Source: a virus
Lineage: Duplodnaviria; Heunggongvirae; Uroviricota; Caudoviricetes
IMG/VR virus record: IMGVR_UViG_2541047850_000005
Coordinates: 3,554-67,553 of that record
Direction: 5' to 3' (one strand)
Length of the DNA: 64,000 nt
Shown here: piece by piece, positions 16,381 through 56,362 of the stretch
Layout of the letters: every line of letters begins with the position of its first letter
Numbering within the stretch: the first letter of the stretch is position 1
Translations under genes and position numbers: made by a program
The notes under the pieces: generated by a model
The model's input: only the letters and a program-made list of their open reading frames with translations
The model's database searches: none
Told to the model about the DNA's origin: nothing

Positions 16381-16441
16381 ATGTTTTTCTCTTATCGTTT
16401 AGTTATTACATTCTTACACAAATTAAGTAAGTATTTACCTA

Positions 16442-18127
16442 TCATTTAACGCGTTTGAAAACGTATACGCTGACTGTGATCCCTGTGTCTTCAAACTCGT
16501 TGGTAAACGACTTCCCTCTGGCATAAACGTAATTATCCATCGTCATCCAGTCCAGTATTGGCGCAGTGCCCGGCAATACTGCTACAAGACGCCCGCCGAC
16601 TTTCAGATGCCCCAGCGCAGCCAGCGTGTGCTCTCTATGACGACCAAGCGAGTACGGCGGGTTCATAACGATTTTGTCGAACTGATAACCTGCGTTGTCC
16701 TCAGACCACTTTATGAAGTCGCAGCAAATCGTGTTCGTATACCCTTTTCCACGCAGGATATCAGCGAAGAGAGGTGCGATTTCTATACAGGTAACATCTT
16801 CCAGATCGGCGTTAATATAGGCCAGAAGATCCCCACGTCCGGCTTGAGGCTCCAGCAGCTTCTCACCAGGCTTCAATTCAGTGGCTCTGGCAACGTACTC
16901 AGCAATCAAGCGTGGGGTAGGGTAGAACTGGTGTGATTTTGTATCCGGTATTAAACCGGTAGCCACAATCGTATTTAGCGTATGGCCGATCTCATACTGG
17001 AACTGCCAGTGCTTTTTCTCCTGCACGCCGCCAATGAAGCTCAGTGTGCGCTCAAGCTCTTCCACCTGCGACTTCTGGAGAGCTGAATCAGAGAAGTACC
17101 ATACGCCTTTGTCTTTGCTCAATCGCCCGTCACGAAGCGCAGTGCGAACCGGCACGGAGATCGTCTTCTGGATTAACCCGAACTGCTTTGGTGCCCGTGT
17201 TTTTGGCGCAGTTCGGCATGGCGCGGGGATTGCAGCAGGCATACTGTAAGCCAGCACCTCATTCAACTTCCAGGCCACGTCAGGATGTATTTCAAAGTGA
17301 ACGTTGCCGTTCTTGAACATCTTCACGCGCATCAGATTTCCATCGACGTTCATCCAGTCACCGGTCTGGCAGTCGTTTGCCCTATACGCAGCTGATAGCA
17401 CCTCAGCAGTGCGGTTGATGGTAATAAATTCTTTGTGCGCGAAGAAATGAAGCAAGACACGCAGATCGTCGATGTAGTCCTCTTTGCGATAGTTCACGCT
17501 AACGCTGTCCCGCCAGAAATCAGAAATGCAGTCAGCGATTATCAGCCGCTCGCTGAAACCGTTTGTCTTATTTGTCTTGTGCGCAGGACTCAGCGCCTTA
17601 AACAAGCCATACACGCGCTCAGAGAGATATTTGTGCCTGTCATTCAGCAAATTAAGCATCGTGGGTATGACCGTTTCTGCTTTGAACTCCGGTACACCAA
17701 CGAACTCTTTAACCTTCATCTGATAGCCGGTTCTGTCAGTTTTGATGACTTCCTGCTTGCCCTCGATAAATTGCTCACGCCACTCGTCGCGACGGGAAGC
17801 TGGCATGATCAGCAGAACGTTAGTCATATCCGTGACCTTCCTCCAGTACTCGGCCCAAATATTCTGTTTCACCCATTCCAGATCGACGTTATCCAGCCAG
17901 ACTCGATTCAAACGTGAGCGATCTTCATCTGGTCGGTGGTTTAGTCGAAGCAGGCGATTAATCATGTTGTGGCGTTCATCGCCATAAACGAAGTCGTGTA
18001 CCTGATACATGAAGGAGATCTCTTTCTCGCACTCGGCCACAATTTCGTGGATGACGTTCATTTCCTGTCGATAGTCGATAGCAGTGTTTGAGCTGGCATC
18101 GTCCATGATGGAAAGAGCTGTATTCAT
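16442..18127 (-). CDS. N6-adenine DNA methyltransferase fused to a large N-terminal domain of unknown function
   Basis: C-terminal third has motif I-like LEPQAGRGDL and motif IV MNPPYS; about 380 N-terminal residues have no recognisable family. Confidence 0.6.
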   Translation of the reverse strand: MNTALSIMDDASSNTAIDYRQEMNVIHEIVAECEKEISFMYQVHDFVYGDERHNMINRLLRLNHRPDEDRSRLNRVWLDNVDLEWVKQNIWAEYWRKVTDMTNVLLIMPASRRDEWREQFIEGKQEVIKTDRTGYQMKVKEFVGVPEFKAETVIPTMLNLLNDRHKYLSERVYGLFKALSPAHKTNKTNGFSERLIIADCISDFWRDSVSVNYRKEDYIDDLRVLLHFFAHKEFITINRTAEVLSAAYRANDCQTGDWMNVDGNLMRVKMFKNGNVHFEIHPDVAWKLNEVLAYSMPAAIPAPCRTAPKTRAPKQFGLIQKTISVPVRTALRDGRLSKDKGVWYFSDSALQKSQVEELERTLSFIGGVQEKKHWQFQYEIGHTLNTIVATGLIPDTKSHQFYPTPRLIAEYVARATELKPGEKLLEPQAGRGDLLAYINADLEDVTCIEIAPLFADILRGKGYTNTICCDFIKWSEDNAGYQFDKIVMNPPYSLGRHREHTLAALGHLKVGGRLVAVLPGTAPILDWMTMDNYVYARGKSFTNEFEDTGITVSVYVFKRVK

Positions 18128-18230
18128 AATTGCACCATTAAGAAATGATTTGTTTAATGATGCAATTATTTCAAAAATAAAAAGGTGCTAAATAGAAATT
18201 AACAGGCAATACTTAAAATAAAGGCATTGA

Positions 18231-18905
18231 CTAATCATACTTGGATGTATTTATAACCAGGACTTTATTTGTATATAGTTTTTTTACATCCCATGTAACA
18301 TTACTTGAATACCATTCACCATTATATATTTGGTTTCCCGTTGCGCCTGTCATTGTTACGTATACAGGTCTGTCGTAAGGTGTTCGTCTATAGTTATATA
18401 CTCCAACCATTGCAGGCATTATCGCACACGGGTATCCCATATTTATGGTAAATTGAGGATTTGTAATAGTGATAATCTCTGCATCAAGGGGCATCATCTC
18501 ACCGTGATATACCATTTTACCTGCGCTATTATACATGGCAATACCATATCCTGAATGTGGTAACACCATATCAGAAAAAGCATAAACTGTTATCGTTCCG
18601 GGGTTTCCTCCAACCTGATTCAGTCTGAGAACATTATACCCATCTCTAAATTCATGAACGAACATCATATTCGCCTTATTACTGCTTTTTATAAAGAAAA
18701 AACATGATTTGTTCGACGGTATTGAAGTCTTAAAAACAGAACCTTTAGACGTGGACATTGTCCCCCTATTAATCAAATTTTGCGGTGTAAATTCTGGACT
18801 CATCCACACATTACCATTTGACTGAGTAATTGACATCCCGAACATTATTGTTATCCCCAATATGTATATATATAAGATCCAAGTCCCTTGTATAAATTTG
18901 ACCAA
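18231..18905 (-). CDS. hypothetical membrane-anchored/secreted protein in AT-rich island
   Basis: N-terminal hydrophobic segment WILYIYILGITIMFG; strongly AT-rich codons unlike neighbours. Confidence 0.4.
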   Translation of the reverse strand: MVKFIQGTWILYIYILGITIMFGMSITQSNGNVWMSPEFTPQNLINRGTMSTSKGSVFKTSIPSNKSCFFFIKSSNKANMMFVHEFRDGYNVLRLNQVGGNPGTITVYAFSDMVLPHSGYGIAMYNSAGKMVYHGEMMPLDAEIITITNPQFTINMGYPCAIMPAMVGVYNYRRTPYDRPVYVTMTGATGNQIYNGEWYSSNVTWDVKKLYTNKVLVINTSKYD

Positions 18906-19132
18906 CTTACTGTATTGCCGTTAATAGTGATAGTTGGTGTAGGTATATTTACATGGTTATCGTTATTTAAAGGCATCAATGAGCACACAGCATGTAATGA
19001 TTTGCCAGGTGGTGGATTTGGGTAAGTCTTAGAGCCTGACGTGGTTGTAAATCGATCAAGAAAAAAAATAGGAGTAAGGAAGCCGGTAACGTTAACTCCC
19101 TTATTATTGTAGATCCCTGTACCGTATGCCAT
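18851..19132 (-). CDS. hypothetical protein in AT-rich island
   Basis: ORF track, 93 aa; overlaps the next ORF in another frame, so boundaries uncertain. Confidence 0.3.
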   Translation of the reverse strand: MAYGTGIYNNKGVNVTGFLTPIFFLDRFTTTSGSKTYPNPPPGKSLHAVCSLMPLNNDNHVNIPTPTITINGNTVSWSNLYKGLGSYIYTYWG

Positions 19133-19186
19133 TTTTCATCCTTGTTTTTATCAACATAATATGGCCGATCATGCGGCCATATCAGA

Positions 19187-19756
19187 TCAATTAGAGCTTT
19201 GAAAGGCTTTGTGTGGCTGTGTTGCGAGGTTATGTCGATGGCTTAACTCACGCATCATGTCTTCAAAGCGACTCTTTGTGTCGTCGAGTTGGTCAGCCAT
19301 TGCTCCTAAAAGCTGACGAACTACCATCGGATCGTCGCTGTTTAGTGATGGCATTTTATAACCCGCCTGAGAAGACATCAGATTGAATGCAGACATCAAC
19401 ATCGTTAGAGAGGATTTAAGCCCGGCAATTTCACGATCTTTGCTGGCAATAATCGTCTCACTTTTGTTACTGTCATGAGTTCCTTGAGTCTCGCTCACCA
19501 TATCCAAAGTCGCCTGCAACTTATCAGCGCGCTCTTTTTCAGCAAGATAATGAACACCGAAATGATGTGCTAAAGCTACAACCTGAGTTGGCTCTTCAAA
19601 GGTGGACTCAAAATTAAGTGCTGTAACCACTCTCTCAAAAATGGAAACGTCTTCTATTCCTCGAAGAATGGCTAACATTTTGACCAGTTCATTAGCATCC
19701 ATTTCTTCGAATAAGGCGTTTTGTTCATCAGCTATCGCTTTGCATTTCTTGCACAT
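19187..19756 (-). CDS. hypothetical protein (189 aa)
   Basis: ORF track; motif-1 copy 19773-19797 plus AGGAAAAACAC-ATG context. Confidence 0.45.
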   Translation of the reverse strand: MCKKCKAIADEQNALFEEMDANELVKMLAILRGIEDVSIFERVVTALNFESTFEEPTQVVALAHHFGVHYLAEKERADKLQATLDMVSETQGTHDSNKSETIIASKDREIAGLKSSLTMLMSAFNLMSSQAGYKMPSLNSDDPMVVRQLLGAMADQLDDTKSRFEDMMRELSHRHNLATQPHKAFQSSN

Positions 19757-20053
19757 GTGTTTTTCCTAATGCTTAAACAAGTTGTTTTCTTATTGGCTTT
19801 ATTGTGATGTGGCATAAAAGGGGAGCAAGCTAAACGTAAAGGTGCAAACTCTCTATTTCGGTCAACGAAACACAATGGCCATTTGACCCTTGTCATTAAC
19901 ACGTTGCTTTACGGACTAGCGGATAAGCGAAGTAGATCGCCAGACCAATGAGGACGCCATCAGAAATGACAGACATCATCTTTCCCGTAAAATCCACCAA
20001 CACCGCCATCACCAGAAGAGCAATGACGGTCACAAGCCGGAATCTCTCAAGCA

Positions 20054-20479
20054 TTAGAGATAAGCATCCAGTGACAACTGAAGCGCCTGGGCGATCTTTT
20101 TCAGCGCCTGCTCTTCTGGTTCATCAATGCCGTCTTGGTCGGCAATATCAAGGCACAGACAAAGTACATCTACTGCATCATCAGTCCCGGCCACATCCGC
20201 CAGCTCACGTAAAGCCTGGGCATTAGCACGGCGCGGTGAGGCTTCGTATTGAGCGCGGATATTGGCGCTCATCTGGGCAATCTCACCAGCAAAAGGAGAA
20301 AATGCAGGCAGAGCTGCAATTGTTTTCTCAAGAATGGAAATTTCTTTTGCATCGCATGTACCGTTGGCATAGGAGATCATGTACCCACCCCACACGGTGG
20401 CTTCAACCGCATCACGGTTCTCCATTTTTTTGACTTCGATAACTGCTTTACGAGTTTTCTTTTTGAAGAAACCTAACAT
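20054..20479 (-). CDS. hypothetical protein, possibly TerB-like
   Basis: Acidic C-terminal segment …DQDGIDEPEEQALKKIAQAL… resembles TerB-family proteins (weak); motif-1 copy at 20500-20520. Confidence 0.35.
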   Translation of the reverse strand: MLGFFKKKTRKAVIEVKKMENRDAVEATVWGGYMISYANGTCDAKEISILEKTIAALPAFSPFAGEIAQMSANIRAQYEASPRRANAQALRELADVAGTDDAVDVLCLCLDIADQDGIDEPEEQALKKIAQALQLSLDAYL

Positions 20480-20572
20480 GTGTTTTCCTTTTGTTATTTG
20501 TCAAAACAAGTTGTTTTCTAGTTAAATAAATTGCTTACGCAAAGGCGGTCAATGCATATGCACTAACAACCG

Positions 20573-20761
20573 TCAGAAATAACCAAGTACCGAACCGACT
20601 GGAAAAATAAAAATCCCAACTACACGAGCCAAGGTCATGCCAGCCTGAAACTGGAGATCGCCAGAGCAAACAAGTTTTATAATGTTCGATACCCAACCGG
20701 CGGCCATGAGGGCAAGAATTGCCAGCCAAATTTTTCCAAAGTGATTTGAAAACCAGTTCAT
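20573..20761 (-). CDS. small hydrophobic membrane protein (62 aa)
   Basis: Two predicted TM stretches (IWLAILALMAAGWV, VVGIFIFPVGSVLGYF). Confidence 0.35.
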   Translation of the reverse strand: MNWFSNHFGKIWLAILALMAAGWVSNIIKLVCSGDLQFQAGMTLARVVGIFIFPVGSVLGYF

Positions 20762-21009
20762 ACAACCGCCTTAGTCACAGCATGATCCTGAGTAACTGGA
20801 TGAACTTGAGGTATCGCATCCACCGTCATCCCATCCAGAGTGACAGGACGCTCTGCTGGAGTGGTGGTAATTGTCGTCGACGGAGGTGTGGTGATGGATG
20901 AATCCGGCATCAAAAGGCTCTGGCCGGCTGGAACGGCTACCGTCGCCAGTGAAACTATAATGAGAACGTAGGCCATTGGTTTCAGCCTCTTTCTTTGAAA
21001 ATTTTCCAT
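20758..21009 (-). CDS. small membrane/secreted Thr-Pro-rich protein (83 aa)
   Basis: Hydrophobic N-terminus MAYVLIIVSLATVAV followed by TTPPSTTITTTP. Confidence 0.35.
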   Translation of the reverse strand: MENFQRKRLKPMAYVLIIVSLATVAVPAGQSLLMPDSSITTPPSTTITTTPAERPVTLDGMTVDAIPQVHPVTQDHAVTKAVV

Positions 21010-21286
21010 TCGAACTGTCCTTGTTGTTTTTCTCCTTCACTAAAGGCCGTGCATTTTTCGCTTGGTGTGAAGAACCAGAGGTAACAATCGCCCCCACGTT
21101 CGCAACAACTGACGCTTGCTTATCTAAACGTTCATTCAGCAACCGAACGGTAGTCTCAAGTTCATCAAGACGTGACAGAACACGACCGCTAAATAATTCG
21201 GCCAAAATTTGACGTAGTGAACGAGGACGTTTAGTTGCAGAAGTGAAATAGGTTTGACGTGCCATGTGGACTCCATCCAGTGTCAT
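20771..21286 (-). CDS. hypothetical protein (only N-terminal part credible)
   Basis: ORF track; C-terminal half is low-complexity and overlaps 20758..21009 in another frame; motif-2 variant at 21384-21405 upstream. Confidence 0.3.
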   Translation of the reverse strand: MTLDGVHMARQTYFTSATKRPRSLRQILAELFSGRVLSRLDELETTVRLLNERLDKQASVVANVGAIVTSGSSHQAKNARPLVKEKNNKDSSNGKFSKKEAETNGLRSHYSFTGDGSRSSRPEPFDAGFIHHHTSVDDNYHHSSRASCHSGWDDGGCDTSSSSSYSGSCCD

Positions 21287-21410
21287 AAAGAGTTGCGGCT
21301 GGCGATTGCCAGCCGCCTTTCTCGTTCCATCCTGGAACTGTGTCTTACCGACACATTGTCATCCTGACGCCGATAAGATACATGATTTATAATGATAGGT
21401 AAACACTTAC

Positions 21411-22005
21411 TTACTGCTTGTTATAAACAAAACCAATATCTTTCTTGTGAGGCATATCTGCTGCGGAAAAAGCTGCGATCTTCGCGAGTCGATCACATAT
21501 TTCATTTTCACGATGCCCGGCGTGACCTTTAACCCACTTCCAGCGAACATTATGTCGACTTGCGGCCTCATCCAGACGCTTCCACAGATCAACATTCTTT
21601 ACCGGTTTTTTGTCAGAAGTCATCCATCCATTGCGTTTCCACCATTTCATCCACTGTGTCATGCCGTTTTTCAGATACTGGCTATCAGAGTGCAAAATAA
21701 CGTTGCATGGATATTTCAAACGCTCCAGCCCGATAAGTGCCCCCATCATCTCCATGCGGTTATTGGTGGTGCTATGAAAACCATCTGAGAACTCGCGTTC
21801 CTCACCACGATACTGAAGAACGATACCGTAACCGCCCGGGCCACCCGGATTTTTAAGGCAAGAGCCATCACTGAAGATTTTCACGGTTTTAAGCTGGGGA
21901 TTGAACTCTACGACAGGCGTTGTGGGATTGGTACGGGGAGAATTTTTGTTTTTGGCTTTTTTGCGAGTTTTTGCTTGCGATCGGGCTGGTGTCTTCGTCG
22001 TCATA
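21411..22005 (-). CDS. rnhA: ribonuclease HI-like
   Basis: [22 protein letters not shown]…[10 protein letters not shown]…[18 protein letters not shown] are the RNase H DEDD-type motifs; start set at MTTKTPA after an AGGAG SD. Confidence 0.8.
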
Positions 22006-22588
22006 TAAACTCCTGAATCAAGCGCCGCGCCGATTTTTTTTTCCTCGCGCGTGCGCACACGCGTGCGTGTTAATAATTATTAAAATAAACAAATTACTTC
22101 CCAGAACAGGTTTTTATAAACCTGAACTGAACGAACGAAGTGAGTGAAGTTCACCTCGAACGAAGTGAGAGGTTGTCTTTTCAGGTAATACTCTCCCAGG
22201 GAGGTGAGTATAAAATTCCTCACCAACCTGGTCGTTTCATAACCTGAAAAGTTATGGTCTAAGTCTACTGCCAGCTTAGACTTGGGAAGTTATGGATGAC
22301 AGCACCCCAGAACCGAGATCTTCCCACACTTTATGAAGGGGAGTACTGGATTCAACCTCTCGAAACACCCCAGACTCGACAATCATAAAGTGACCCTTGT
22401 CTCTGCTCACTTTGGTTCCCCCTTCCCCGACACCTAAACGGCACCGGTTCTACGCTGGTAGTGAGCTTTTTAAACCTGACGCCAGTGACGCTTACCCCCA
22501 CCCATCAGGTCGAGCCTCCAGTCTACGACTGGAAACAATCAGATCTTAGCACTTACAATTCACTTTATGAATAGTTTGTACTTATCTA
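22006..22588 (-). other. ORF-free, structure-rich segment (candidate non-coding RNA)
   Basis: About 580 bp with no ORF of 60 aa or more on either strand in a densely packed region; several hairpins and tandem GAACGAAGTGAG repeats. Confidence 0.3.
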
Positions 22589-22843
22589 TCATTGTGATTG
22601 ATTATTTTCTCGACCATGTAGTTGAACATTCAAGGCAAACACCTCATTGATCAACTCACCTAAAAGCTGTTCAACAAGTTCGCGATGCTCCCCAAGATGC
22701 AAGCACTTAATTGCCCATTCGTACAAGTTGAAAGCCTGCTCTCGATCTTTCATCATTTCACGAGCCTTAGCCAGAAAATCGCTCTCTACGAGCGCAACGA
22801 CATTAGTCGGGTATGACATGTTGGTTTCCTTAAAGTGGTTCAT
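22589..22843 (-). CDS. hypothetical small protein (84 aa)
   Basis: ORF track. Confidence 0.4.
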   Translation of the reverse strand: MNHFKETNMSYPTNVVALVESDFLAKAREMMKDREQAFNLYEWAIKCLHLGEHRELVEQLLGELINEVFALNVQLHGRENNQSQ

Positions 22844-22927
22844 AAAATCGATTTTAAAGCGTCTGGGAAGGGGGTCTAGTGGATTCTGTAGTGATGTTCA
22901 GGTCTGGGAGTCTCTGATACAAAACAG

Positions 22928-22980
22928 CCTGCTTCCGTATATTAATAATTAATATGTAGTTATTTATATACAGAAGCAGG
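22928..22980 (-). terminator. long inverted repeat / putative terminator
   Basis: CCTGCTTCCGTATAT … ATATACAGAAGCAGG (15-bp arms, 1 mismatch, 23-nt AT loop), 24 nt after the Dam-like gene stop. Confidence 0.4.
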
Positions 22981-23003
22981 TTAATTACACTCGCCAGAAC
23001 AAA

Positions 23004-23597
23004 CTAAGCAGCCTTCTTTGATGCTCTTTTTTTTCTGACCACATTCGCAGGATCATACCCTCCCAGACTTTTCATGACGTCCAAAGGGATCTTGCTTATA
23101 GAGTGCCCAGCGTCCTGACAGAATCCTCGAAAAACAACGAGCATACTGCCACCGGGGTTGATGTTTACTTCTACCTGACCCAAATTGACGTCAGGCTCGA
23201 CAAACGCTACGCGGCCACCAGACAGAATAATCGTCTCATTCGCATACTCTGTTGCACGCTCATACCACTTTGTATCGAGGGATTGAGGAATTAGCATCAC
23301 TGTTGTAACTCCGCGAGCCTGCTCACGTATAGCCGCATCAATCCAGGGGGAGATTTTGGAGTAGGGTGGATTGAGGAAGGCAATTGTACCTGGCTGCCCC
23401 CATTCAGATTTCAAAGCATCGCGCTCAACGCCTATGAAAATAGGCAGCTTTGCATTGTCCTTGTTGCAGGCAACGTCAACATCAAATGTCACTCCAAGAT
23501 AACGTTGAATGGCAGAAAACAGCCAATCAGGTGTTCTCCAGAGATCACGAAGAGAGTTGTCGCGCTTTCGCTGTTTGATTTTTTCGGCTGCAATCAT
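23004..23597 (-). CDS. phage-type Dam-like N6-adenine DNA methyltransferase
   Basis: 197 aa with NPPYS motif (FLNPPYSKISPW) and the short single-domain architecture of phage N6A methyltransferases. Confidence 0.7.
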   Translation of the reverse strand: MIAAEKIKQRKRDNSLRDLWRTPDWLFSAIQRYLGVTFDVDVACNKDNAKLPIFIGVERDALKSEWGQPGTIAFLNPPYSKISPWIDAAIREQARGVTTVMLIPQSLDTKWYERATEYANETIILSGGRVAFVEPDVNLGQVEVNINPGGSMLVVFRGFCQDAGHSISKIPLDVMKSLGGYDPANVVRKKRASKKAA

Positions 23598-23608
23598 CTT
23601 TTTTCTCG

Positions 23609-23628
23609 ATAGGTAAGTGATTACCTAT
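23609..23628. promoter_or_regulatory. motif-2 palindromic operator (ATAGGTAAG-N-CTTACCTAT family)
   Basis: ATAGGTAAGTGATTACCTAT, perfect 8-4-8 palindrome 12 bp upstream of the Dam-like start. Confidence 0.5.
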
Positions 23629-23780
23629 TTTTGCATTTGATTTCATGTATGGCAATCAAATAAAACGCGCCAGAAATGCGAACAAGAAGCTCTCTGGCGC
23701 GTTTTTGTGGTGCTGGGTATGGGTTATGCTTACCCAGCACTATAAAGCTCTCTATGGGCTTTATTTTCAGTAGGGGAACG

Positions 23781-24590
23781 TCATCCAATAGTGTACTCCG
23801 CGACAAACTTCTTAACGATCGGTGATTCTTCGTTCAATGTTAGATTTCCACCGTCTCTAACAGCAATTCCTGTAGCTGGAAATACAGCCATCATTTGCCC
23901 AGCCTGAGTTGACGCAGTGTTAAGCGGATACGGTTTTTCTGGATTGCTCATTAAAGCAATCTTAATACTATTACTTGTAGCCTTCTTTTCTGTGAGAAGG
24001 TGTCTCATGGAAATTACCGTGTAAACACTAATATCTGGACCTCCGCTAAACCAATTAAGAAGATTTAATATCTTATCCTTCGCTTTGACAGGCGCGTTTT
24101 CGTAAGCGTCTAAGAAAATATCTTTTTCTAAGCCTGCTTTATTGAAAAACGAATCATCTTTATCACTTAAAGTAAAACGAGGACCTCTTGCAACACGAGC
24201 TTTTTTATTTGTATTGCTATCATTTGACTGTTGAACTTTTAATTCATCATTAACCTCAACACACTCTTCAACCTCAATAAATCCCAATTGTTCTGGCTCG
24301 TTTTCGGCAGCTTCAACACTTTCAGCGTTAATTACGTTTATAGGCTCATGCGCTAACTCCAACTCATTTAAAGCAGAGCTGAAATCACCTGCTTTTTCTT
24401 CATTGAACAGTTCTTCGGCAACATCATCAGAACTCATGGCTACGCCAGCATCGAGGCCGAGAAGCAGATCGTCAATATCATCAGTATTTTCAACCTGTGC
24501 AGCTTTTTTTACTGGTTCATCAAGTGATTGCAACATGGCTGTCAGCTCATCCAGATCATCATTTGTCATTACATTTTCAACCGAACTCAT
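23781..24590 (-). CDS. hypothetical protein with acidic N-terminal half (269 aa)
   Basis: ORF track. Confidence 0.45.
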   Translation of the reverse strand: MSSVENVMTNDDLDELTAMLQSLDEPVKKAAQVENTDDIDDLLLGLDAGVAMSSDDVAEELFNEEKAGDFSSALNELELAHEPINVINAESVEAAENEPEQLGFIEVEECVEVNDELKVQQSNDSNTNKKARVARGPRFTLSDKDDSFFNKAGLEKDIFLDAYENAPVKAKDKILNLLNWFSGGPDISVYTVISMRHLLTEKKATSNSIKIALMSNPEKPYPLNTASTQAGQMMAVFPATGIAVRDGGNLTLNEESPIVKKFVAEYTIG

Positions 24591-24750
24591 GTAAGTCTCC
24601 TTCTGTTTAGTTGCATTTGCGTTTCGATGGCTACATTTTGACTAAACCTATCAGGCGGAAAAGTATTAAATACAGGCAGGAAATGATTGAAAGGCGACTG
24701 TTCTTTAAAAGAAAGCCTGCTTCAAACTCTCTTTAAAGCAGGCTTTTGTT

Positions 24751-25308
24751 TTACACAATTTCAGAGGGTAATTTAAAAAATCCGTATTTATTACGTGCCT
24801 TAAAGAAGCATTGCATCATTAAGTTTGTGTCATATAAGGCACTATGTGCTTTGGCATGATCGTATATAAAGCCAAGAGAGAAGGCCAATTCTTCAAGGCG
24901 AGGACGTTTACCGTCTTCTGTGGCCCACAATCCCGATAACATAGTATCTATAACGGGAACGTCTGGCAGTCTTACTCCATACCCTGAAAACTCGTGTCGA
25001 ATAAATGGTATATCAAACGCTTCGCCGTTATGAGCAATCCACGCACTACATGCCCCCATATAAGCGCCAATTTCGCTGGCATGATTTGACAACAAAGGTT
25101 CAGCTGCGAGCTGTTCTAATGAAATGCCATGAACGGCTTGAGCTTTCGGATCTATGTTTCTGCGAGGGTTAAAACGCATCTCCAGACTATCAATATGTCT
25201 CTGTGTCTCCAGTTCATAGCGGGTAATTGCGATTTCAATAATTTTATGACCAGCAAGGAAATCCAGTCCCGTAGACTCGATATCGATGCCTGCAACAATC
25301 GTTGTCAT
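24751..25308 (-). CDS. DEDDh 3'-5' exonuclease (DnaQ/epsilon-like)
   Basis: Exo I GIDIESTGL, Exo II AHNGEAFDIPF, Exo III HSALYDT. Confidence 0.75.
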   Translation of the reverse strand: MTTIVAGIDIESTGLDFLAGHKIIEIAITRYELETQRHIDSLEMRFNPRRNIDPKAQAVHGISLEQLAAEPLLSNHASEIGAYMGACSAWIAHNGEAFDIPFIRHEFSGYGVRLPDVPVIDTMLSGLWATEDGKRPRLEELAFSLGFIYDHAKAHSALYDTNLMMQCFFKARNKYGFFKLPSEIV

Positions 25309-25317
25309 CAGAACTCC

Positions 25318-25737
25318 TTACAACTTCTTAGCGCCCTTAAGTAGTGCGCTACGTACAAATTGAGCCGCTTTTTTCAAAGTTTCTTGACTGGTTTCACAGA
25401 CAATCGGATTTTTCCACTTACCTGACGCAGTGTTGAGAATATTGATTTGGTTGCTATCCAGACAAACAGAGATATAAAGCACCGTGCCACCAGCCAGCAT
25501 CAAATGCATAGGAAACAGAGGCTTTTTACTGTCTTCACTGAACTGAGACATGGCGATGTTAATGGCTTCACCTACTTGTGCGCCAACAAGCCCCTGCGCA
25601 GTTTCGAATATGGCACGAATAGCCAGACGAGCCTCTCGATCGCTCATAAGCGACCGGGAATGTTCGTCCGCTACACGAATCAAAGCCTCTGTTGTTTTCC
25701 GATCCAGTTCATCTTCAAGCAACATTTCACTAAACAT
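25318..25737 (-). CDS. hypothetical protein (139 aa)
   Basis: ORF track. Confidence 0.4.
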   Translation of the reverse strand: MFSEMLLEDELDRKTTEALIRVADEHSRSLMSDREARLAIRAIFETAQGLVGAQVGEAINIAMSQFSEDSKKPLFPMHLMLAGGTVLYISVCLDSNQINILNTASGKWKNPIVCETSQETLKKAAQFVRSALLKGAKKL

Positions 25738-25798
25738 TTTTTATCCTTAACCCATTTTGAGAGTTTTATTGTCGCAATGTCGAAGAGGCGAACAATTT

Positions 25799-26443
25799 CT
25801 AATGAACGGTCACTCGGCCACAGAACCGGTTTTCTATCTTTTCTACAGCGTTATCTAGCACTCTCATCACTGATCTGGCTCTTGCTTCAACCGTGCGATA
25901 TCGGTTGGAAACGACGAAGGTTTGCAGATCCCCCCTTTGCGGATGCAGGTGAATTTTTGTCAGTTCCCCGCACATCAACGCATCAATACGAGCGACATAC
26001 AGACGGTCTAATGATGCTCGTTGTGATCGCAAGTAATCTCGCTCTGAGAGAGCGACTCCCGGGCGTAGGCCAGCAATGGCGTTAAAGTTTGAAATAGCAG
26101 TTTTGTGGCAAAACTTTTCGATATCGAGGGCTAACTCAATACATCGATCTTCATTGGTATGGCCGACCAAATCCAACGTGTAGGCCATAACATCAGCAGG
26201 TGTGCGATCGATAACAAAGCCTTCAACACCACGCGTAAGTAGCTCTATATGCTTTGCTATTTCCATTTGAATCTGAAGCCGCTCATATAGAGGCATAGAC
26301 TCACCTACTCGAACACCGAGTCGGCTCATCAAACTTCCGACACCAGCATCCACGTAAGGGATTCCGTAATGTTTGTCGATATATTTTGCCAGGGTTGTTT
26401 TCCCACTGCCCTGAGCACCAGTGATCCCAATCCGGTAATCCAT
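25799..26443 (-). CDS. P-loop NTPase, putative (deoxy)nucleotide kinase
   Basis: Walker A GITGAQGSGKTTLAKYI and a DRT motif; sits in the thyA-folA precursor cluster. Confidence 0.5.
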   Translation of the reverse strand: MDYRIGITGAQGSGKTTLAKYIDKHYGIPYVDAGVGSLMSRLGVRVGESMPLYERLQIQMEIAKHIELLTRGVEGFVIDRTPADVMAYTLDLVGHTNEDRCIELALDIEKFCHKTAISNFNAIAGLRPGVALSERDYLRSQRASLDRLYVARIDALMCGELTKIHLHPQRGDLQTFVVSNRYRTVEARARSVMRVLDNAVEKIENRFCGRVTVH

Positions 26444-26919
26444 TACGACCTTCTGTATACGATCTGCGAAAAGCCAGGCTCTTCCTCGCTGGCTCGTTGG
26501 GTAAAAACTGTTTCAACAGGCACAAAGCCTAAATTACGCATCATGCTTGCCGGGAAGAATGCATCGGCGTTTGGCACATCAACGCCGATGTGGGAGAGCC
26601 AAATCTCTTCAACATGCGGCATGAATAGCGAGTAAATTTGTTCCCCGCCAATCACCCACACAGGCTCTGGTAATCGCAACACATCATCCACACCAGCAGG
26701 GTAGAATCCATTTGGTACAAAGCCATGAGAGCGCGTCAAAACGAGGTTATGACGCTCTGGAAGAGGGCGTTTGAGACTTTCCATCGTTTTACGCCCCATA
26801 ACGACAGTGGCGTTTTTGGTGAGTCTCTTAAATAGCTTCAGATCGGTAGAACAACGCCAGGGCAGTTCGTTCGCTATGCCGATCTCATAGTTACGGCCAA
26901 CAGCAGCTATCATCTTCAT
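26443..26919 (-). CDS. folA: dihydrofolate reductase
   Basis: MKMIAAVGRNYEIGIANELPW…VVMGRKTMESL…LVLTRS matches the DHFR fold signature; 158 aa. Confidence 0.8.
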   Translation of the reverse strand: MKMIAAVGRNYEIGIANELPWRCSTDLKLFKRLTKNATVVMGRKTMESLKRPLPERHNLVLTRSHGFVPNGFYPAGVDDVLRLPEPVWVIGGEQIYSLFMPHVEEIWLSHIGVDVPNADAFFPASMMRNLGFVPVETVFTQRASEEEPGFSQIVYRRS

Positions 26920-27332
26920 TTGCTCACCTCATAGATGACCGGTCTATGATGAGAGTCAGCTAAAGCGGCACGGAGTCGAGGATCGTGCACCAGCGCAGCG
27001 ATAAGCAGATCGCCTTTATGCTCCGCTAATGTGCGCTTAATATGCTTCTCATAACTGGTGCCATTCGGTACGAGATGAAGCCAGTCGTAATCAACGCCAA
27101 AATCTTTCAGCCATCGTTTAGTGGGCGCTTCAAGAGTTTCAGAGCGGCTACTGATAAGCACCACTTCAGCCCCTGAGCGAGCAAAACCACGCAACATACG
27201 GCTGGTGGGGAAAATGAGTTCATCACCGGCAATGAGCTGGTCTGCATCCGTGTCAGGTACAGATTTACGATGGCTGGTATTTGCCAGCACACCTTCAATT
27301 TCGCATAAGACATACATACCTCTTGCCATATC
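26916..27332 (-). CDS. hypothetical protein (possible nucleotide-metabolism enzyme)
   Basis: ORF trimmed to MARGMYVL…; coupled between thyA-like and folA-like genes; no confident motif. Confidence 0.35.
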   Translation of the reverse strand, partial: DMARGMYVLCEIEGVLANTSHRKSVPDTDADQLIAGDELIFPTSRMLRGFARSGAEVVLISSRSETLEAPTKRWLKDFGVDYDWLHLVPNGTSYEKHIKRTLAEHKGDLLIAALVHDPRLRAALADSHHRPVIYEVSK

Positions 27333-28434: not shown

Positions 28435-28507
28435 AAAACCTCACGAAGATAAGTAATCAATTATTTATCACGTGAGTTTACATTCATTGATAACACAAGA
28501 CCAGATA

Positions 28508-28535: not shown

Positions 28536-28601
28536 AAAAGAATAGTCGCTCCAGAGTTTTATACGCAAATCAAATATACATTAGTAGATAATCACCTACA
28601 A

Positions 28602-33112: not shown

Positions 33113-33157
33113 GTATCACCAAATAAAGAGGGCCACTAAATATAGTGGCCCATGTTA

Positions 33158-33178
33158 ATAGATAAGCACCTACCTATC
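33158..33178. promoter_or_regulatory. motif-2 palindromic operator
   Basis: ATAGATAAGCACCTACCTATC in a TTGATA-N17-TAACAT promoter-like context upstream of nrdA; followed by 5'-UTR hairpin GGGCCACTAAATATAGTGGCCC (33131-33151). Confidence 0.45.
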
Positions 33179-37855: not shown

Positions 37856-37876
37856 TATAAGTAAGTATATACCTAT
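37856..37876. promoter_or_regulatory. motif-2 palindromic operator
   Basis: TATAAGTAAGTATATACCTAT upstream of the SbcD-like gene. Confidence 0.45.
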
Positions 37877-41186: not shown

Positions 41187-41401
41187 GCTGCCACCTCTTT
41201 GATTACATCAAATGCTGAATTAAATACGAGCACGATAGCCAAAGCGTTTATGACTACGTCGTTCACCGGGGAAAAGACTTTACGAATGACACCGGTGAAA
41301 ATGCAGTCGATGACAAAAGCTATTGAAACGATGAGTAACAAGTATTCAATAAAAATCTTAATGATAGGTAGATACTAACTTATATAAATTTTACTGTAAA
41401 C

Positions 41402-41677
41402 TCACTCAAAAGTGCTGATGCTTAAAATACGCTCAAGATGTGCGGCATCTTCATCACTGATTTGTTGAGTCTCTTCTACGTACCAACAGTTGCCGTTATG
41501 CCAACAAACACCATCATCATCAACCATCACTGAATCAGCGTCATGACCTGTATATTCAACGAGAATACGCTGGATCAGCGCGTCAGTTTCTTCGTCGTTA
41601 AGACCATCGGCTTTGACCATAAAAAGCGGAAACACGTCATAGACAGTGCTGGTAACGATTCGAACTAAAACTCTCAT
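41402..41677 (-). CDS. hypothetical protein (91 aa)
   Basis: ORF track; AAAAGGAAAAACAC-ATG context. Confidence 0.4.
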   Translation of the reverse strand: MRVLVRIVTSTVYDVFPLFMVKADGLNDEETDALIQRILVEYTGHDADSVMVDDDGVCWHNGNCWYVEETQQISDEDAAHLERILSISTFE

Positions 41678-41732
41678 GTGTTTTTCCTTTTGTGGTTAGT
41701 GTTTACTTATTTTGTTAGTTATGAATAGGCGA

Positions 41733-42250: not shown

Positions 42251-43081
42251 TTATTTCACTGTAATGAAAGGAGTGTTAGCCCCTTGAGTCATGTACTGCG
42301 GTAACTGGCCATTCCATTTATTGATGGCTTCCAGCTCCATAACGTTCGGGTTTTGACGCAGAGCTTCACCGCGCAGACGAATGGCGTCTGCTTCTGCTTG
42401 CGCACGAGCACGGATAGCATCAGCTTCACCATTAGCCTGTTCACGTAGCATATTCGCCTCAGCTTTACGTTGTTCAACTTCCTGCTGACGTTGCAGAGTA
42501 CGCTGGTTAGCCGTTACTTTGGCGTTGATAGATTCAATGACGGTTTTTGGGTAATCAGGCTTTCCAACCCATGACAGGCTCAGTACCTCAATACCAACCG
42601 GAGACATCTCTTTCTGAATATCTTTCAGTGCGTTGTCCAGCAATTGTGCCTTACCACCGTCGATAAATGAGTCAGTGGTCATACGGCTGGCCAAACGGTT
42701 TAGAGAGTCGGCAATTTTCTGACGCAGATCTGATTCGGTGATATCGTCTACGCCTTTGCGATAGGTCTGGAACACCGTCGTTACCTTGTCACGATTAACC
42801 AGATACGCAACGCCAATTTTGTGACCAATAGCAGTACCGTCACTCATCTGGAATGTGAACGGCTCGTCGTAGGTCTTCATTTGTTTGAAGGTCGGGAATA
42901 CGTAAAGTTCGGTGTTAAGACCTGTCCATTGGCGACCAACGCCAACTACTTCACCAATCCCTTTGTCTTCACCTAATTTGTTTACTTTGATGCCAACGTA
43001 TCCAGGCTCCACGCGATCACAGCCAGTAAGACCCATTGTGCAAACAGCGGCCACGATCACTGCCAGTAAACCTTTCTTCAT
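42251..43081 (-). CDS. SPFH/band-7 domain lipoprotein
   Basis: Lipobox LTGC after a signal peptide; band-7-like core and C-terminal coiled coil (EADAIRARAQAEADAIRLRGEAL). Confidence 0.6.
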   Translation of the reverse strand: MKKGLLAVIVAAVCTMGLTGCDRVEPGYVGIKVNKLGEDKGIGEVVGVGRQWTGLNTELYVFPTFKQMKTYDEPFTFQMSDGTAIGHKIGVAYLVNRDKVTTVFQTYRKGVDDITESDLRQKIADSLNRLASRMTTDSFIDGGKAQLLDNALKDIQKEMSPVGIEVLSLSWVGKPDYPKTVIESINAKVTANQRTLQRQQEVEQRKAEANMLREQANGEADAIRARAQAEADAIRLRGEALRQNPNVMELEAINKWNGQLPQYMTQGANTPFITVK

Positions 43082-43285: not shown

Positions 43286-43344
43286 GTGTTTTCCTATGTG
43301 GTTGTTATGCGAAAATAATAAGTAAGTGCTTATGTATTTTCAAG

Positions 43345-43372
43345 AGATAAAAAAGGCGTCCTGTGGACGCCT
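43345..43372 (-). terminator. rho-independent terminator
   Basis: Minus-strand AGGCGTCCACAGGACGCCT + TTTTTT directly after the RecA-like stop. Confidence 0.7.
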
Positions 43373-43377
43373 TGTGT

Positions 43378-46981: not shown

Positions 46982-46990
46982 GTAATGGGA

Positions 46991-48019: not shown

Positions 48020-48136
48020 GTGTTTCTCCTTGTTGTGATTTGGCCGATGGCGCTATGCGCGTTGGGCTTTCGTTCATTCGTGGCTCTTTCGAGCTGTTTA
48101 ATGATAGATCAGTGCTTACTTATTATCTATCAAAAA

Positions 48137-48684: not shown

Positions 48685-48693
48685 TTTATTGGA

Positions 48694-52212: not shown

Positions 52213-52396
52213 GTGTTTTTACCTTTCTGGTTTTTTTGATTTTGTCATTTGGGAAGCCTACGAACTTCCCATGCATCGAAATCGCAACTTCTTTTGCTGA
52301 TTGGTGACAATAAGGCTTGTCTGGACACACCAGACAAGCCTTACCAGTTTCAGAAGCAGCGATAAGAGAGCCGAAACATCCTTTACGCACGATCAA
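52187..52396 (-). CDS. hypothetical small Cys-rich protein (69 aa)
   Basis: ORF track; CLVCPDKPYCH cluster; overlaps the dnaE start by 26 nt. Confidence 0.3.
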   Translation of the reverse strand: MIVRKGCFGSLIAASETGKACLVCPDKPYCHQSAKEVAISMHGKFVGFPNDKIKKTRKVKTHEGTDGSN

Positions 52397-53628: not shown

Positions 53629-53723
53629 GCGTTTTTCCTTTGTTTTCTAATGAGCTTTCAACTTCTTATATAAATATACCATCAAATATCGTAAGTGATT
53701 ACTTATCATTAAGGCTATTCTAA

Positions 53724-55832: not shown

Positions 55833-55930
55833 GGCTAATCCTTTGTTATGAAAACAAATTATTTACTAGTATGTTTAATGTAGCACTGCGCGAACAGGGA
55901 ACTAAGCCATTCGCGCAGGTAGCAGAGGGG

Positions 55931-56143
55931 TTAACAGGTTCTGACGGCTAAAGAGCCAGAGCCGGTATTGATAAGCGTGAAGCGTTTGTTATTAAGTAGG
56001 AATATAAAGGCTGTTGCGTCATGCATACCAACCTGAATCTGCTCATTTGGTAATTCGGTGAGAATGTCAGCTACACATTCATCAGCTAATTTTTCAACGT
56101 GTCCGATCTCAAGAGTGATTAGGCTGGAAATAGTTGTTTTCAT
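55931..56143 (-). CDS. hypothetical small protein (70 aa)
   Basis: ORF track; divergent from the HTH gene. Confidence 0.35.
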   Translation of the reverse strand: MKTTISSLITLEIGHVEKLADECVADILTELPNEQIQVGMHDATAFIFLLNNKRFTLINTGSGSLAVRTC

Positions 56144-56345
56144 TCAATCAATCCATTCTAACTTAAAATATGGTAGGGAGTACTATTAAATCTTATATCA
56201 TAATTGAACTTATCTATATCATATCTGAGTTAGTTTTGTTACATGTTATTAGTCGTTTTTCTCCATTAATGAATGCTGATTGGTTAATATTTGTGCCTGT
56301 AGAAAAAATGATTATATCTTTACAACCCTAACCTTTGATGTAATA

Positions 56346-56362
56346 TCGGTAAGCACTTACCA
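56346..56362. promoter_or_regulatory. motif-2-like palindrome upstream of HTH regulator gene
   Basis: GGTAAGCACTTACC about 30 bp upstream of the 56391 ATG; candidate autoregulatory operator. Confidence 0.4.

Follow-up and report, generated by a model that had tools for sequence, protein, structure and literature searches.

Dispersed 20-bp palindromes as candidate operators of a lysogeny repressor in SSU5-supergroup phage-plasmids

The window analysed here, a 64,000-nt stretch of DNA, derives from an E. coli SSU5-type phage-plasmid and is 99.6 to 99.9% identical to phage PhiR41_1; the SSU5 supergroup of phage-plasmids includes pHCM2 of S. Typhi, pMT1 of Y. pestis, the pKpn elements of K. pneumoniae, and related Acinetobacter and Cupriavidus elements. 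On the plus strand, a gene at 56391..56777 encodes a 128-aa XRE/Cro-CI-type HTH protein, a candidate master repressor and the putative binder of a recurrent palindrome, hereafter motif 2. The predicted promoter of this gene (TTTACA-16-TAATAT, 56319..56346, plus strand) has a -35 and a -10 that are invariant in a four-lineage alignment, and a variant copy of motif 2, ATCGGTAAGCACTTACCAGA (56345..56364; 13.5 to 17.4 bits), covers its -10 edge and the predicted start site. The core of this copy is invariant in the window, Cyrano, pHCM2, and pKpn, whose surrounding intergenic regions have otherwise diverged; the copy before the HTH gene, placed at 56346 by an earlier sequence-only reading, is real, and the promoter beneath it is phylogenetically footprinted. 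In a cro-like position, a 70-aa gene (55931..56143, minus strand; PHROG 2627, no known function) diverges from the HTH gene. A small gene occupies this position in six of seven lineages, with none annotated in the pKpn record, and the Cyrano ortholog is raised by 6.4 log2 in macrophages. A minus-strand tyrosine-recombinase (integrase-like) gene (56772..57875; Pfam Phage_integrase) converges on the HTH gene with a 6-bp overlap, and 29 bp upstream of it lies a LexA box, CTGTATAAGTAAACAG (57904..57919), which is kept in Cyrano, pHCM2, pKpn, and pL3995-2. The exact pattern CTGT-N8-ACAG has three matches in the window, two of them just upstream of genes (10062, umuD-like; 57904, integrase-like); we take these two to be LexA boxes separate from motif 2, which itself does not fit the LexA pattern.

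The HTH gene is syntenic in all seven lineages, that is, in every plasmid-form lineage examined. In all seven, a motif copy lies between it and the divergent gene block, with the lineage-specific core in six; the pL3995-2 copy is a weak match (12.9 bits). The HTH protein matches PHROG 8 "transcriptional regulator" (E=7e-12) and, in Pfam, HTH_19 (E=0.0015) and HTH_37 (E=0.007), neither of which reaches its curated gathering cut-off; the S24 peptidase domain of RecA-mediated self-cleavage is absent by Pfam. An AF2 model gives a five-helix Cro/CI fold for residues 12-80 (pLDDT of about 88 to 90), which superposes on C.AhdI, 434 Cro, and P22 C2 at 1.5 to 1.9 A over 61 to 63 residues. A profile search of solved structures matched HTH repressor domains in the PDB, among them the 8bny chain named "Immunity repressor protein," at an E value of about 1e-3 and over a generic HTH stretch; the fold search with the AF2 model listed no chain of that name.

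Motif 2 is a 20-bp palindrome of fixed form, ATAGGTAAGT/ACTTACCTAT, with a 2-nt centre and invariable spacing, and its copies in the window are degenerate. The looser pattern first proposed, ATAGGTAAG-N(2-4)-CTTACCTAT, is matched exactly nowhere in the window, and the spacing is not N(2-4), but a palindromic operator-like family does exist: a weight matrix trained on 22 SSU5 sites only and then run over the window returned 9 sites of at least 17 bits (0 expected) and 11 of at least 14 bits (0.05 expected), the expected counts being taken from third-order Markov simulations. Conversely, a matrix built from the 9 window sites found 9 further sites of at least 17 bits (0.02 expected) in the 44.7 kb of PhiR41_1 that lie outside the window and served as an independent test region. 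Across 40 sites, the information profile shows two conserved blocks, positions 2-9 and 12-19, which are mirror-symmetric and one helical turn apart. Changes in the half-sites were one-sided in 107 cases and compensatory in 15, and Watson-Crick pairs per site numbered 7.22 against 7.25 in permutations; the half-sites therefore deviate from the consensus independently, which favours a protein dimer over an RNA hairpin and points to motif 2 as a two-fold symmetric, protein-type site. We know of no E. coli regulator whose consensus motif 2 resembles.

The best copy in the window, ATAGGTAAGTGATTACCTAT (23609..23628; 26.7 bits), lies 11 bp ahead of the start of the Dam-like gene and covers the predicted start site of a minus-strand promoter-like match, TTGCCA-17-AAAAAT (23655..23627). 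Equally clear are TTAAGTAAGTATTTACCTAT (16423..16442; 25.5 bits), which abuts the upstream stop codon 42 bp before a minus-strand gene (15676-16380), and the copy before nrdA (33158..33177; 24.6 bits), which takes up the stretch between -35 and -10 of a TTGATA-17-TAACAT promoter-like site, with a hairpin after it at 33130-33151. All three had been correctly placed beforehand, the sequence quoted for 23609 was right, and four others were listed within a few nucleotides of their true starts (as 37856, 41362, 43314, and 48103): the copy before sbcD (37857..37876; 26.0 bits), one within a TTTATA-16-TATCAT promoter-like site (41364..41383; 21.6 bits), one that exactly fills the 17-bp spacer of TTGAAA-17-TATTAT, a 10/12 promoter-like match (43318..43337; 22.4 bits; just downstream of a terminator-like match at 43353-43373), and one lying in the TAGATA-17-TATCAT spacer ahead of the gp32-like SSB gene (48104..48123; 23.3 bits). 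The site listed at 21384 is real but lies 11 nt away (ATAGGTAAACACTTACTTAC, 21395..21414; 25.3 bits). At 28582 a copy is indeed present, though weak (28580..28599; 12.5 bits), and a better one, ATAAGTAATCAATTATTTAT (28449..28468; 20.5 bits), flanked by the inverted repeat CTCACG/CGTGAG, stands 14 bp before thyX. Likewise, the copy listed at 53690, ahead of cobS, keeps an intact core (GTAAGTGATTAC, 53687..53706) and has similar counterparts ahead of cobS in SSU5 (45124) and pHCM2 (17023), but it is weak, scoring about 12 bits by the window matrix and less than 11 by the SSU5 one. Two further weak copies are absent from that list: ATAGGTATGTACTTACAATA (3057..3076), about 44 bp upstream of a minus-strand gene, with 14.4 bits by the SSU5-derived matrix and five consensus mismatches, and TGTGGTTAGTGTTTACTTAT (41691..41710), about 14 bp before the gene at 41402-41677, with 12.6 bits by an iterated window-derived matrix and a PhiR41_1 counterpart at 102805 (13.3 bits). 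The downstream genes had been named correctly apart from the thymidylate synthase, whose annotation is ThyX and not ThyA.

Genome-wide counts were taken on PhiR41_1 (108 kb), over which about 19 sites of at least 17 bits and about 6 weaker ones are spread singly. Of the 19 strong sites, 18 are intergenic, in a genome of which intergenic DNA makes up 11%; they lie 0 to 30 bp past upstream stop codons and 1 to 130 bp ahead of start codons, in gaps of 60 to 150 bp. Only one site occupies the regulator's intergenic region in the E. coli element, with no lambdoid-style immunity-region cluster. Motif 2 stands in front of early genes (replication, recombination, nucleotide) as well as late ones (head, tail, lysis); in the complete genome the genes that follow it include portal, capsid-region, tail, tail-fibre, holin/lysis, and ParB-like genes. 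It is therefore not a "replication/precursor" class, as had been supposed. A second motif, AAACAAnTTGTTT (motif 1), exists as the sequence-only reading had proposed, but within single functional modules the two are intermingled (nrdA has motif 2, nrdB motif 1), so a division into two temporal gene sets does not follow. The motif ahead of parA is motif 1 and not motif 2. The observation behind that reading is confirmed and its interpretation partly supported.

The position of the sites relative to promoter-like elements varies among spacer, -35 overlap, and start site, which would suit a repressor, being tolerant of position, and not an activator. A recognisable -35 is missing at most sites, and a promoter model placed on motif 2 scored no better in the gene direction than in reverse; promoter overlap is thus demonstrated for a handful of sites only. 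TAnnnT is embedded at motif positions 18-23 in 57% of sites, at equal frequency on both strands, and we saw neither a directional element at a fixed offset from motif 2 nor significant strand asymmetry in its flanks for promoter-type elements.

The same motif occurs in SSU5, pHCM2, pKpn (Klebsiella), and pL3995-2, and its core changes from TAAG to TCAG..CTGA in Acinetobacter CP137931 and the Cupriavidus relative, where the TCAG-core sites hold orthologous positions before sbcD-like, SSB-like, cobS-like, and holin genes. The A. baumannii elements CP137931 (TCAG) and p5388_2 (TAAG) are sisters by CobS and DnaB (57% identity), and their HTH proteins are only 31% identical. The N-cap residue of the recognition helix is Asn throughout the five TAAG lineages and either Arg or Ala in both TCAG lineages; the first residue of this helix thus appears to track the motif-2 core, in a correlation of seven sequences and about four independent lineages. 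The whole HTH tree showed no grouping by motif class.

RNA-seq of Cyrano lysogens shows the HTH ortholog at 10x background and the FljA-like regulator candidate at 1.8x. None of the 19 genes directly after a site is among the genes expressed in these lysogens. The first gene after a site lies below its upstream neighbour, by a median of -0.27 log2 in LB (p=0.02) and -0.9 log2 in B6 (p=0.005), with values near the detection floor and with terminators present at some of the site junctions where the drop was scored. Preferential induction in macrophages of the genes downstream of sites was not seen (p=0.29; values near the floor). Given its synteny, the conserved motif copy over its own promoter, its expression in lysogens, and the correlation between residue and core, the 128-aa protein, already put forward as a candidate regulator by the sequence-only reading, is the best available candidate for the motif-2 binder.

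Despite its 22 good motif-2 sites, phage SSU5 yielded no homolog of the HTH protein. Taken alone, this speaks against the HTH protein as binder, and it would equally fit another binder retained in SSU5. Alignment of SSU5 with pHCM2 reveals a clean 7.5-kb deletion that removes the HTH gene and the small divergent gene, and this deletion would explain why SSU5 has the sites but not the protein, provided that the protein is a repressor which can be dispensed with and not an activator. If SSU5 is a productive phage, as we take it to be, lytic growth would not need the HTH protein, as expected of a repressor but not of an essential activator.

On balance, we lean towards the reading that the copies of motif 2 are operators for the lysogeny (immunity) repressor in SSU5-supergroup phage-plasmids. 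In such a scheme, a dimeric element-encoded protein, most likely the XRE/Cro-CI-type protein of 56391-56777, would bind each 20-bp palindrome with one subunit per half-site. Binding at about 20 single sites in short inter-operon gaps, over early and late genes alike, would silence the lytic genome while the element replicates as a plasmid. Where the palindrome lies in a promoter spacer or over a start site, as at some sites, initiation would be blocked; sites with no recognisable promoter may instead stop transcripts that read through from genes for plasmid maintenance and accessory functions, in the "stoperator" mode of L5, as a roadblock. The deviant copy over the regulator's own promoter would provide negative autoregulation, and induction is probably SOS-linked, with the conserved LexA box driving the integrase-like gene convergently into the regulator gene.

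The strong sites of SSU5, which lacks an XRE homolog, would also suit a reading that we hold to be unlikely, namely that motif 2 is a positive, promoter-like element of the lytic programme bound by another factor kept in SSU5 (the FljA-like PF03614 regulator or an uncharacterised small protein), with the XRE protein regulating something else. The poor -35 at most sites is typical of activator-dependent promoters, the embedded TAnnnT could be read in the same way, and the FljA-like protein is 69% identical in SSU5 and present in 835 enterobacterial plasmids. However, TAnnnT is as frequent on either strand and comes with no fixed-offset directional element, the position relative to promoter-like hexamers is inconstant, and expression falls rather than rises across the sites in lysogens. 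A copy over the XRE gene's own start site would moreover be expected to repress, not activate, and no FljA-like homolog was found in the Acinetobacter or Cupriavidus plasmids, which carry the motif family.

It is improbable that the palindromes are dispersed centromere-like or silencing sites for the element's ParB-family proteins, in the manner of the KorB OB sites of IncP plasmids or the scattered centromeres of N15. Some 20 palindromic copies dispersed over a replicon would fit, and the element does encode ParB_N-domain proteins (PhiR41_1 42383-43063) and ParA, both retained in SSU5; yet in Cyrano lysogens, when partition or silencing would be required, transcripts of the ParB-like genes sit at the detection floor (CYRAN_119, 4.99 normalised counts; CYRAN_120, 9.5), the second of the ParB-like genes is annotated as a DNA modification methylase, and no cluster of sites lies near parA, which has motif 1. 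A motif-2 copy also stands 18 bp before a ParB-like gene, as if the gene itself were a target. We give very little credence to an RNA-level hairpin serving as a processing site, stabiliser, or terminator: a perfect copy could form an 8-bp stem and several copies lie in 5' untranslated regions, at most 15 bp from the start codon, but the half-sites show no compensatory covariation and pair no more often than the permutation mean, the stems are rich in AT and their loops no longer than 4 nt, and a consistent T-run after the palindrome was not found. A host transcription factor is just as hard to credit; palindromic sites ahead of genes would suit one, though nothing specific points to it, and motif 2 is no LexA box, while two elements of the same host species, A. 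baumannii, use different cores.

Beyond the repressor reading itself, a wider proposal is tentative and, in our estimate, rather doubtful: that all SSU5-supergroup elements silence the whole lytic genome by one short dimeric XRE repressor acting at about 20 operator- or stoperator-like sites, one per operon junction. If it were true, repressor and sites would co-evolve into immunity specificities (TAAG, TCAG, and others), in part through the residue that opens the recognition helix; SSU5, as a free phage, would be a repressor-deletion, effectively virulent derivative, as D29 is of an L5-like phage; and induction would proceed by transcription of the integrase-like gene, under LexA control, running antisense into the repressor gene. 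A control circuit with genome-wide repressor sites has not yet been described for the widespread SSU5-type group.

Several known systems offer parallels. With Cro/CI regulators (434, P22 C2, lambda), the element shares the HTH fold of the model, a palindromic operator whose half-sites are separated by one helical turn, and a regulator that diverges from a small gene and has an operator over its own promoter. Lambdoid operators, however, form a cluster of two or three tandem sites within a single immunity region, unlike the roughly 20 single sites found here genome-wide, and the HTH protein lacks an S24 peptidase domain. KorB, of the ParB family, exerts global repression from a dozen or so palindromic OB operators dispersed on IncP plasmids; motif 2 is similarly dispersed over its replicon, but the candidate is not of the ParB family and the element's ParB_N proteins are silent in lysogens. 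In P1, also a plasmid-prophage, the single C1 repressor controls many operons via genome-scattered operators, one of them at its own gene, as is the copy at the candidate repressor's gene here. The C1 operator is an asymmetric 17-mer (ATTGCTCTAATAAATTT), C1 is a 283-aa protein unrelated to XRE proteins, and P1 late operons are under the Lpa activator and not directly under C1, whereas motif 2 is a different, symmetric 20-mer with an XRE-type candidate, and it stands directly ahead of head, tail, and lysis genes as well.

In mycobacteriophage L5 and its Cluster A kin, whose immunity repressor is gp71, more than 20 repressor sites lie in promoters and short intergenic spaces and are thought to halt both initiation and elongation (PMC9283540). 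Motif 2 resembles them in its roughly 20 sites in short intergenic gaps over early and late operons and in the small drop of expression across sites in lysogens. L5 sites are asymmetric 13-mers oriented with transcription and bound by a monomer with two DNA-binding domains (PMC9283540), unlike the 20-bp palindromes described here, which imply a dimer and have a short XRE-type protein as candidate; on a gp71-type likeness of that protein, Pfam and PHROG gave generic XRE-type matches only and the PDB profile search gave the 8bny chain over the HTH stretch. The host here is moreover Gram-negative and the element a plasmid-prophage, and a stoperator-like block of elongation at its sites is putative, suggested by site placement and by RNA-seq values near the floor. 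D29, a lytic phage, seems to have arisen by deletion from a temperate parent (PMC5712189), and SSU5 is comparably a pHCM2-like element minus 7.5 kb that include the regulator; the switch of the motif-2 core may parallel the evolution of immune specificity in Cluster A, the subject of PMC6550527. By analogy with these systems, the best reading of the motif-2 sites would be as dispersed operators that work like L5 stoperators or P1 C1 operators.

In database sequence comparison, the window matched two E. coli phage-plasmids of the SSU5 supergroup, Escherichia phage PhiR41_1 at 99.6-99.9% identity and phage Cyrano (pLF82) at 95-98%. Almost all genes of the window are carried on the minus strand, and the whole PhiR41_1 genome (107,998 bp) with its annotation was used for the genome-wide motif study. 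The match to PhiR41_1 ends in the last ~580 bases (63423-64000), where Stx-converting phages match at 99.7%; this end of the window is an insertion or junction.

An earlier, sequence-only reading had described a palindromic operator family of the form ATAGGTAAG-N(2-4)-CTTACCTAT. That pattern has no exact match in the window; what lies at or near the proposed positions is a set of degenerate copies of a fixed 20-bp palindrome, ATAGGTAAGT|ACTTACCTAT (motif 2). The family itself is real: when the weight-matrix scan suggested as a check was run, copies were found far above chance. A matrix built from nine window copies recovered nine more sites scoring 17 bits or better in the part of PhiR41_1 beyond the window (44.7 kb; 0.02 expected), and a matrix built from SSU5 sites only found nine sites of at least 17 bits and 11 of at least 14 bits in the window (0 and 0.05 expected), the expected counts being taken from third-order Markov simulations. 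At the 17-bit threshold, 18 of 19 sites in PhiR41_1 are intergenic, in a genome of which only 11% is intergenic. Unsupervised iteration of the matrix at a loose threshold drifted into AT-rich sequence and was abandoned; we therefore used fixed seed sets and the independent SSU5-derived matrix. Eight of the 11 positions originally proposed are strong copies (one shifted by 11 nt) and another is a conserved variant, but those at 28582 and 53690 are weak, and a better thyX-proximal copy than 28582 was found at 28449. This copy is flanked by a short inverted repeat, CTCACG ... CGTGAG (28439-28478). The half-sites of motif 2 have an internal 4-nt period (A-TAAG-TAAG-T or A-TCAG-TCAG-T), which produces shadow matches at +/-4 nt.

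In an information profile of 40 sites from PhiR41_1 and SSU5, conservation is concentrated in positions 2-9 and 12-19, two blocks that mirror each other one helical turn apart, as would be consistent with two protein subunits each reading one half-site. Deviations from the consensus were one-sided in 107 cases and compensatory in 15, and a site had on average 7.22 complementary pairs, close to the mean of 7.25 obtained when right halves were permuted among sites; both observations indicate half-site reading by a protein rather than an RNA stem, and an RNA hairpin was rejected because covariation is absent.

Motif 2 had been assigned to replication and precursor operons, a description that proved too narrow. 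It does precede nrdA, thyX, dam, SSB, and sbcD, and in PhiR41_1 and Cyrano it is also found before the portal gene, the capsid region, the major tail and tail-tip genes, the tail-fibre gene, the holin gene, and ParB-like genes. The second palindrome to which the sequence-only reading alluded, its "motif 1", is probably AAACAAnTTGTTT, which is present as 13-mers at window positions 1795, 2560, 3463, 3947, 5497, 6175, 6226, 10149, 15232, 19775, 20504, 30722, 42175, and 55852. All 14 copies in PhiR41_1 are intergenic and lie 12-65 bp upstream of start codons, usually with AGA directly ahead of the palindrome. Motif 1 precedes nrdB, tciA-like, umuD-like, cobT, and accessory genes and, beyond the window, parA, dnaB, and terS. 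Since the two motifs interleave inside individual modules (nrdA being preceded by motif 2 and nrdB by motif 1), the data do not support dividing the genes by function into two temporal sets.

SSU5, at 76-80% DNA identity, carries 22 sites of at least 18 bits with an unchanged consensus, and motif 2 was also found in S. Typhi pHCM2, a Klebsiella pKpn element, and, at a greater distance, the Klebsiella plasmid pL3995-2. Synteny extends to the Acinetobacter plasmid CP137931 (cobT-cobS-dnaE-SSB-exonuclease-recombinase), which has a different but related palindrome, nnnAGTCAGTACTGACTnnn, at orthologous places before sbcD-like, SSB-like, cobS-like, cobT-like, and holin genes, with three copies in the regulator intergenic region. 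A Cupriavidus plasmid has a TCAG..CTGA core too, and at its sites a 6-nt spacing of the core (TCAG-N6-CTGA) is commoner than a 2-nt spacing (11 versus 3). A second Acinetobacter plasmid, p5388_2, has a TAAG..CTTA core. CP137931 and p5388_2 are sisters by CobS and DnaB (57% identity), yet their motif cores are not alike and their HTH proteins share no more than 31% identity, so the backbone does not predict the core class. Judged from these comparisons, site specificity changes between related backbones, as immunity determinants do; the unlike cores of two Acinetobacter elements also argue against a host factor as the reader of the motif.

The candidate binder of motif 2 is the 128-aa XRE protein encoded at 56391-56777 on the plus strand, and four points speak in its favor. 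Its homologs occur in ~1000 plasmid records from Escherichia, Klebsiella, Enterobacter, Yersinia (pMT1), Salmonella (pHCM2), and Acinetobacter, essentially only on contigs of about 100-116 kb, and model and profile searches predict a Cro/CI-type HTH fold. In each of the seven lineages compared, the gene points away from the cobT block, and in six of them a small gene stands at the head of that block (none is annotated in the pKpn record). In the window this small gene (55931-56143, minus strand; 70 aa, PHROG 2627) occupies a cro-like position opposite the HTH gene. The motif-2 copy reported in front of the HTH gene is real and lies over the gene's own predicted promoter. There the block CTTTACAA-N-TGTAATATC(G/A)GTAAGyACTTACCA hardly varies among the window, Cyrano, pHCM2, and pKpn, in contrast to the diverged remainder of the intergenic region. 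Lineage-specific motif copies lie in the corresponding region of the Acinetobacter and Cupriavidus elements; that of pL3995-2 gave only a weak match (12.9 bits). The recognition helix, GYKNANNLSLIKSGK, is identical in the E. coli and pHCM2 proteins, which are 65% identical overall, and is kept at 45% overall identity in pL3995-2, which keeps the motif too. The N-cap residue of the helix differs with the core: it is Asn in each of the five TAAG lineages and Arg or Ala in both TCAG lineages. A survey of further related loci, made with an alignment of four sequences, returned five loci. In one of these, a Photorhabdus asymbiotica contig, sites at 3393, 5870, 7538, and 15809 read ATAAGTAATTnnTTACTTAT, with the inner G replaced and an AATT inner core, and the regulator has Lys in place of Asn at the helix N-cap; this is possibly a third specificity variant, with too few sites to judge. 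An antisense 88-aa ORF within the HTH gene was considered as an antirepressor and rejected, as it is not conserved in pKpn or pL3995-2.

In RNA-seq of a Cyrano lysogen, the HTH ortholog CYRAN_45 is expressed at ~10 times the local background and was termed a putative master repressor by the authors, who also observed 39-fold induction of Cyrano by ciprofloxacin (PMC9928086). We set the published expression table against the sites mapped in Cyrano (21 for motif 2 and 18 for motif 1). The genes expressed in lysogens include none of the 19 that directly follow a motif-2 site. With values near the floor throughout, the median for these 19 genes was a little lower than for other genes (P = 0.04), expression stepped down across the site from the upstream neighbor by a median of -0.27 log2 in LB (P = 0.02) and -0.9 log2 in B6 (P = 0.005), and no preferential induction of motif-2 genes in macrophages was seen (P = 0.29). 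These figures hint that motif-2 sites are silent or blocking in lysogens. The ortholog of the 70-aa gene (CYRAN_46) rose from 4.3 to 10.8 log2 in macrophages, among the largest rises.

A near-consensus LexA box, TACTGTATAAGTAAACAGTA (57904-57919), lies 29 bp upstream of an integrase-like gene (56772-57875, minus strand); this gene runs toward the HTH gene, and the two share 6 bp at the HTH 3' end. Cyrano, pHCM2, pKpn, and pL3995-2 all retain the box, and the Cyrano integrase-like transcript rose from 5.6 to 10.3 log2 in macrophages, about 25-fold. A plausible, putative induction route is that the SOS response would drive convergent transcription through the integrase-like gene into the repressor gene. 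Another LexA box, CTGTTTATCTGTACAG (10062-10077), is found just upstream of a umuD-like S24 peptidase gene (9652-10041, minus strand), whose Cyrano ortholog CYRAN_98 is highly expressed, and more so in macrophages.

A few sites lie within good predicted sigma-70 promoters. The palindrome at 43318 fits exactly into the spacer of TTGAAA-17-TATTAT, which comes after a terminator, and the arrangement at 48104 and 41364 is similar. At nrdA the first three bases of the site fall within the -35 element and the -10 element comes after the site, and at dam and the HTH gene the palindrome covers the predicted transcription start. A general rule placing the operator in the spacer, with the -10 element from motif position 18, fits 43318, 48104, 41364, and PhiR41_1 49146 but was rejected, as over 40 sites a motif-anchored promoter model performed no better in the gene direction than in reverse; in a scan across sites the sole fixed-offset -10-like element was TAnnnT at positions 18-23, equally frequent on both strands, and AT-richness differed only marginally between upstream and downstream flanks. 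With no directional promoter signal, either the position of the site relative to promoters varies or many sites are without a promoter of their own. Variable placement would be tolerated by a repressor or a roadblock, but not by an activator. Directly after the nrdA site, a GC-rich hairpin, GGGCCACTATATTTAGTGGCCC, with a T-run (33130-33151) overlaps the predicted start of a TTGATA-17-TAACAT promoter; it would stop read-through from ruvC and might not form in transcripts starting at that promoter.

The main rival to repression by the XRE protein, and one that we consider unlikely, is that motif 2 is a positive element whose reader is a factor still present in SSU5: SSU5 has motif-2 sites yet no XRE homolog. 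This absence is due to a clean deletion of about 7.5 kb in a genome (NC_018843) otherwise colinear with pHCM2 at 95-96% identity; the alignment places it at ~42642-42673 in SSU5, opposite 19505-27041 of the pHCM2 locus, and the small gene, the HTH regulator, and the integrase-like, glutaredoxin, phoH, and other genes are lost with it. SSU5 was reportedly isolated as a free, plaque-forming phage; if it grows lytically without the XRE protein, the protein cannot be needed as an activator, and a repressor would fit. From this alignment, SSU5 may be a repressor-less derivative, which parallels the lytic mycobacteriophage D29, an apparent deletion derivative of a temperate parent (PMC5712189).

Other candidate readers of the motif fared less well than the XRE protein. 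A FljA-like regulator of the "repressor of phase-1 flagellin" family (PF03614, E = 1e-68) is encoded just outside the window (PhiR41_1 37192-37710; SSU5_121) and is conserved in 835 enterobacterial plasmids; it is the less likely binder, since homologs were detected in neither Acinetobacter nor Cupriavidus plasmids and lysogens express it only weakly (1.8 times background). The ParB_N proteins are silent in lysogens. A sigma-70-family gene adjoins the cobS-like gene in Acinetobacter and Cupriavidus relatives (1004-1669 in locus L013, 14900-15583 in L011, and 15041-15778 in the Cupriavidus locus L014); a phage sigma factor was rejected as the motif reader, as no homolog of this gene is detectable in PhiR41_1 or SSU5. 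Binding by the XRE protein, the sign of regulation, and roadblocking are what we infer from the data as a whole, with slightly better than even confidence.

Among clinical Enterobacterales and Acinetobacter, SSU5-type phage-plasmids are frequent. Regulation in phage-plasmids was reviewed in 2024; the review covers the mechanisms of P1, N15, VP882, and GIL01 without any entry for the SSU5 group, and a literature search found no paper with the motif-2 core, although an earlier description in a subscription journal is possible. The analysis yields an operator consensus, a named candidate repressor, and a putative SOS link, and thus a testable model of the choice between plasmid maintenance and lysis; it would make immunity groups predictable from sequence and offer a handle to induce or cure these elements. 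Genome-wide silencing at operon junctions has hitherto been best known from mycobacteriophages and P1; if the model is true, one-site-per-junction silencing arose independently with an ordinary dimeric XRE protein.

By analogy, the motif-2 system would act like the dispersed-operator silencing of L5 or P1, with a protein of the XRE fold family. Among phage-plasmids the analogue is P1 C1, a repressor with dispersed, asymmetric operators, in a phage whose late genes depend on a separate activator. Lambdoid Cro/CI proteins share the fold, the divergent arrangement, and the autoregulation, but the operators here are not clustered as theirs are. As to a possible homology with the L5 repressor gp71, a structure profile search matched an "Immunity repressor protein" (chain 8bny), but only over a generic HTH stretch. 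The best functional match is the L5/Cluster A immunity system, in which more than 20 repressor sites lie in promoters (operators) and short intergenic spaces (stoperators) and are proposed to halt both initiation and elongation (PMC9283540). The L5 sites are oriented, asymmetric 13-mers read by a two-domain monomer, whereas the palindromic sites and small XRE-type candidate described here imply a dimer.
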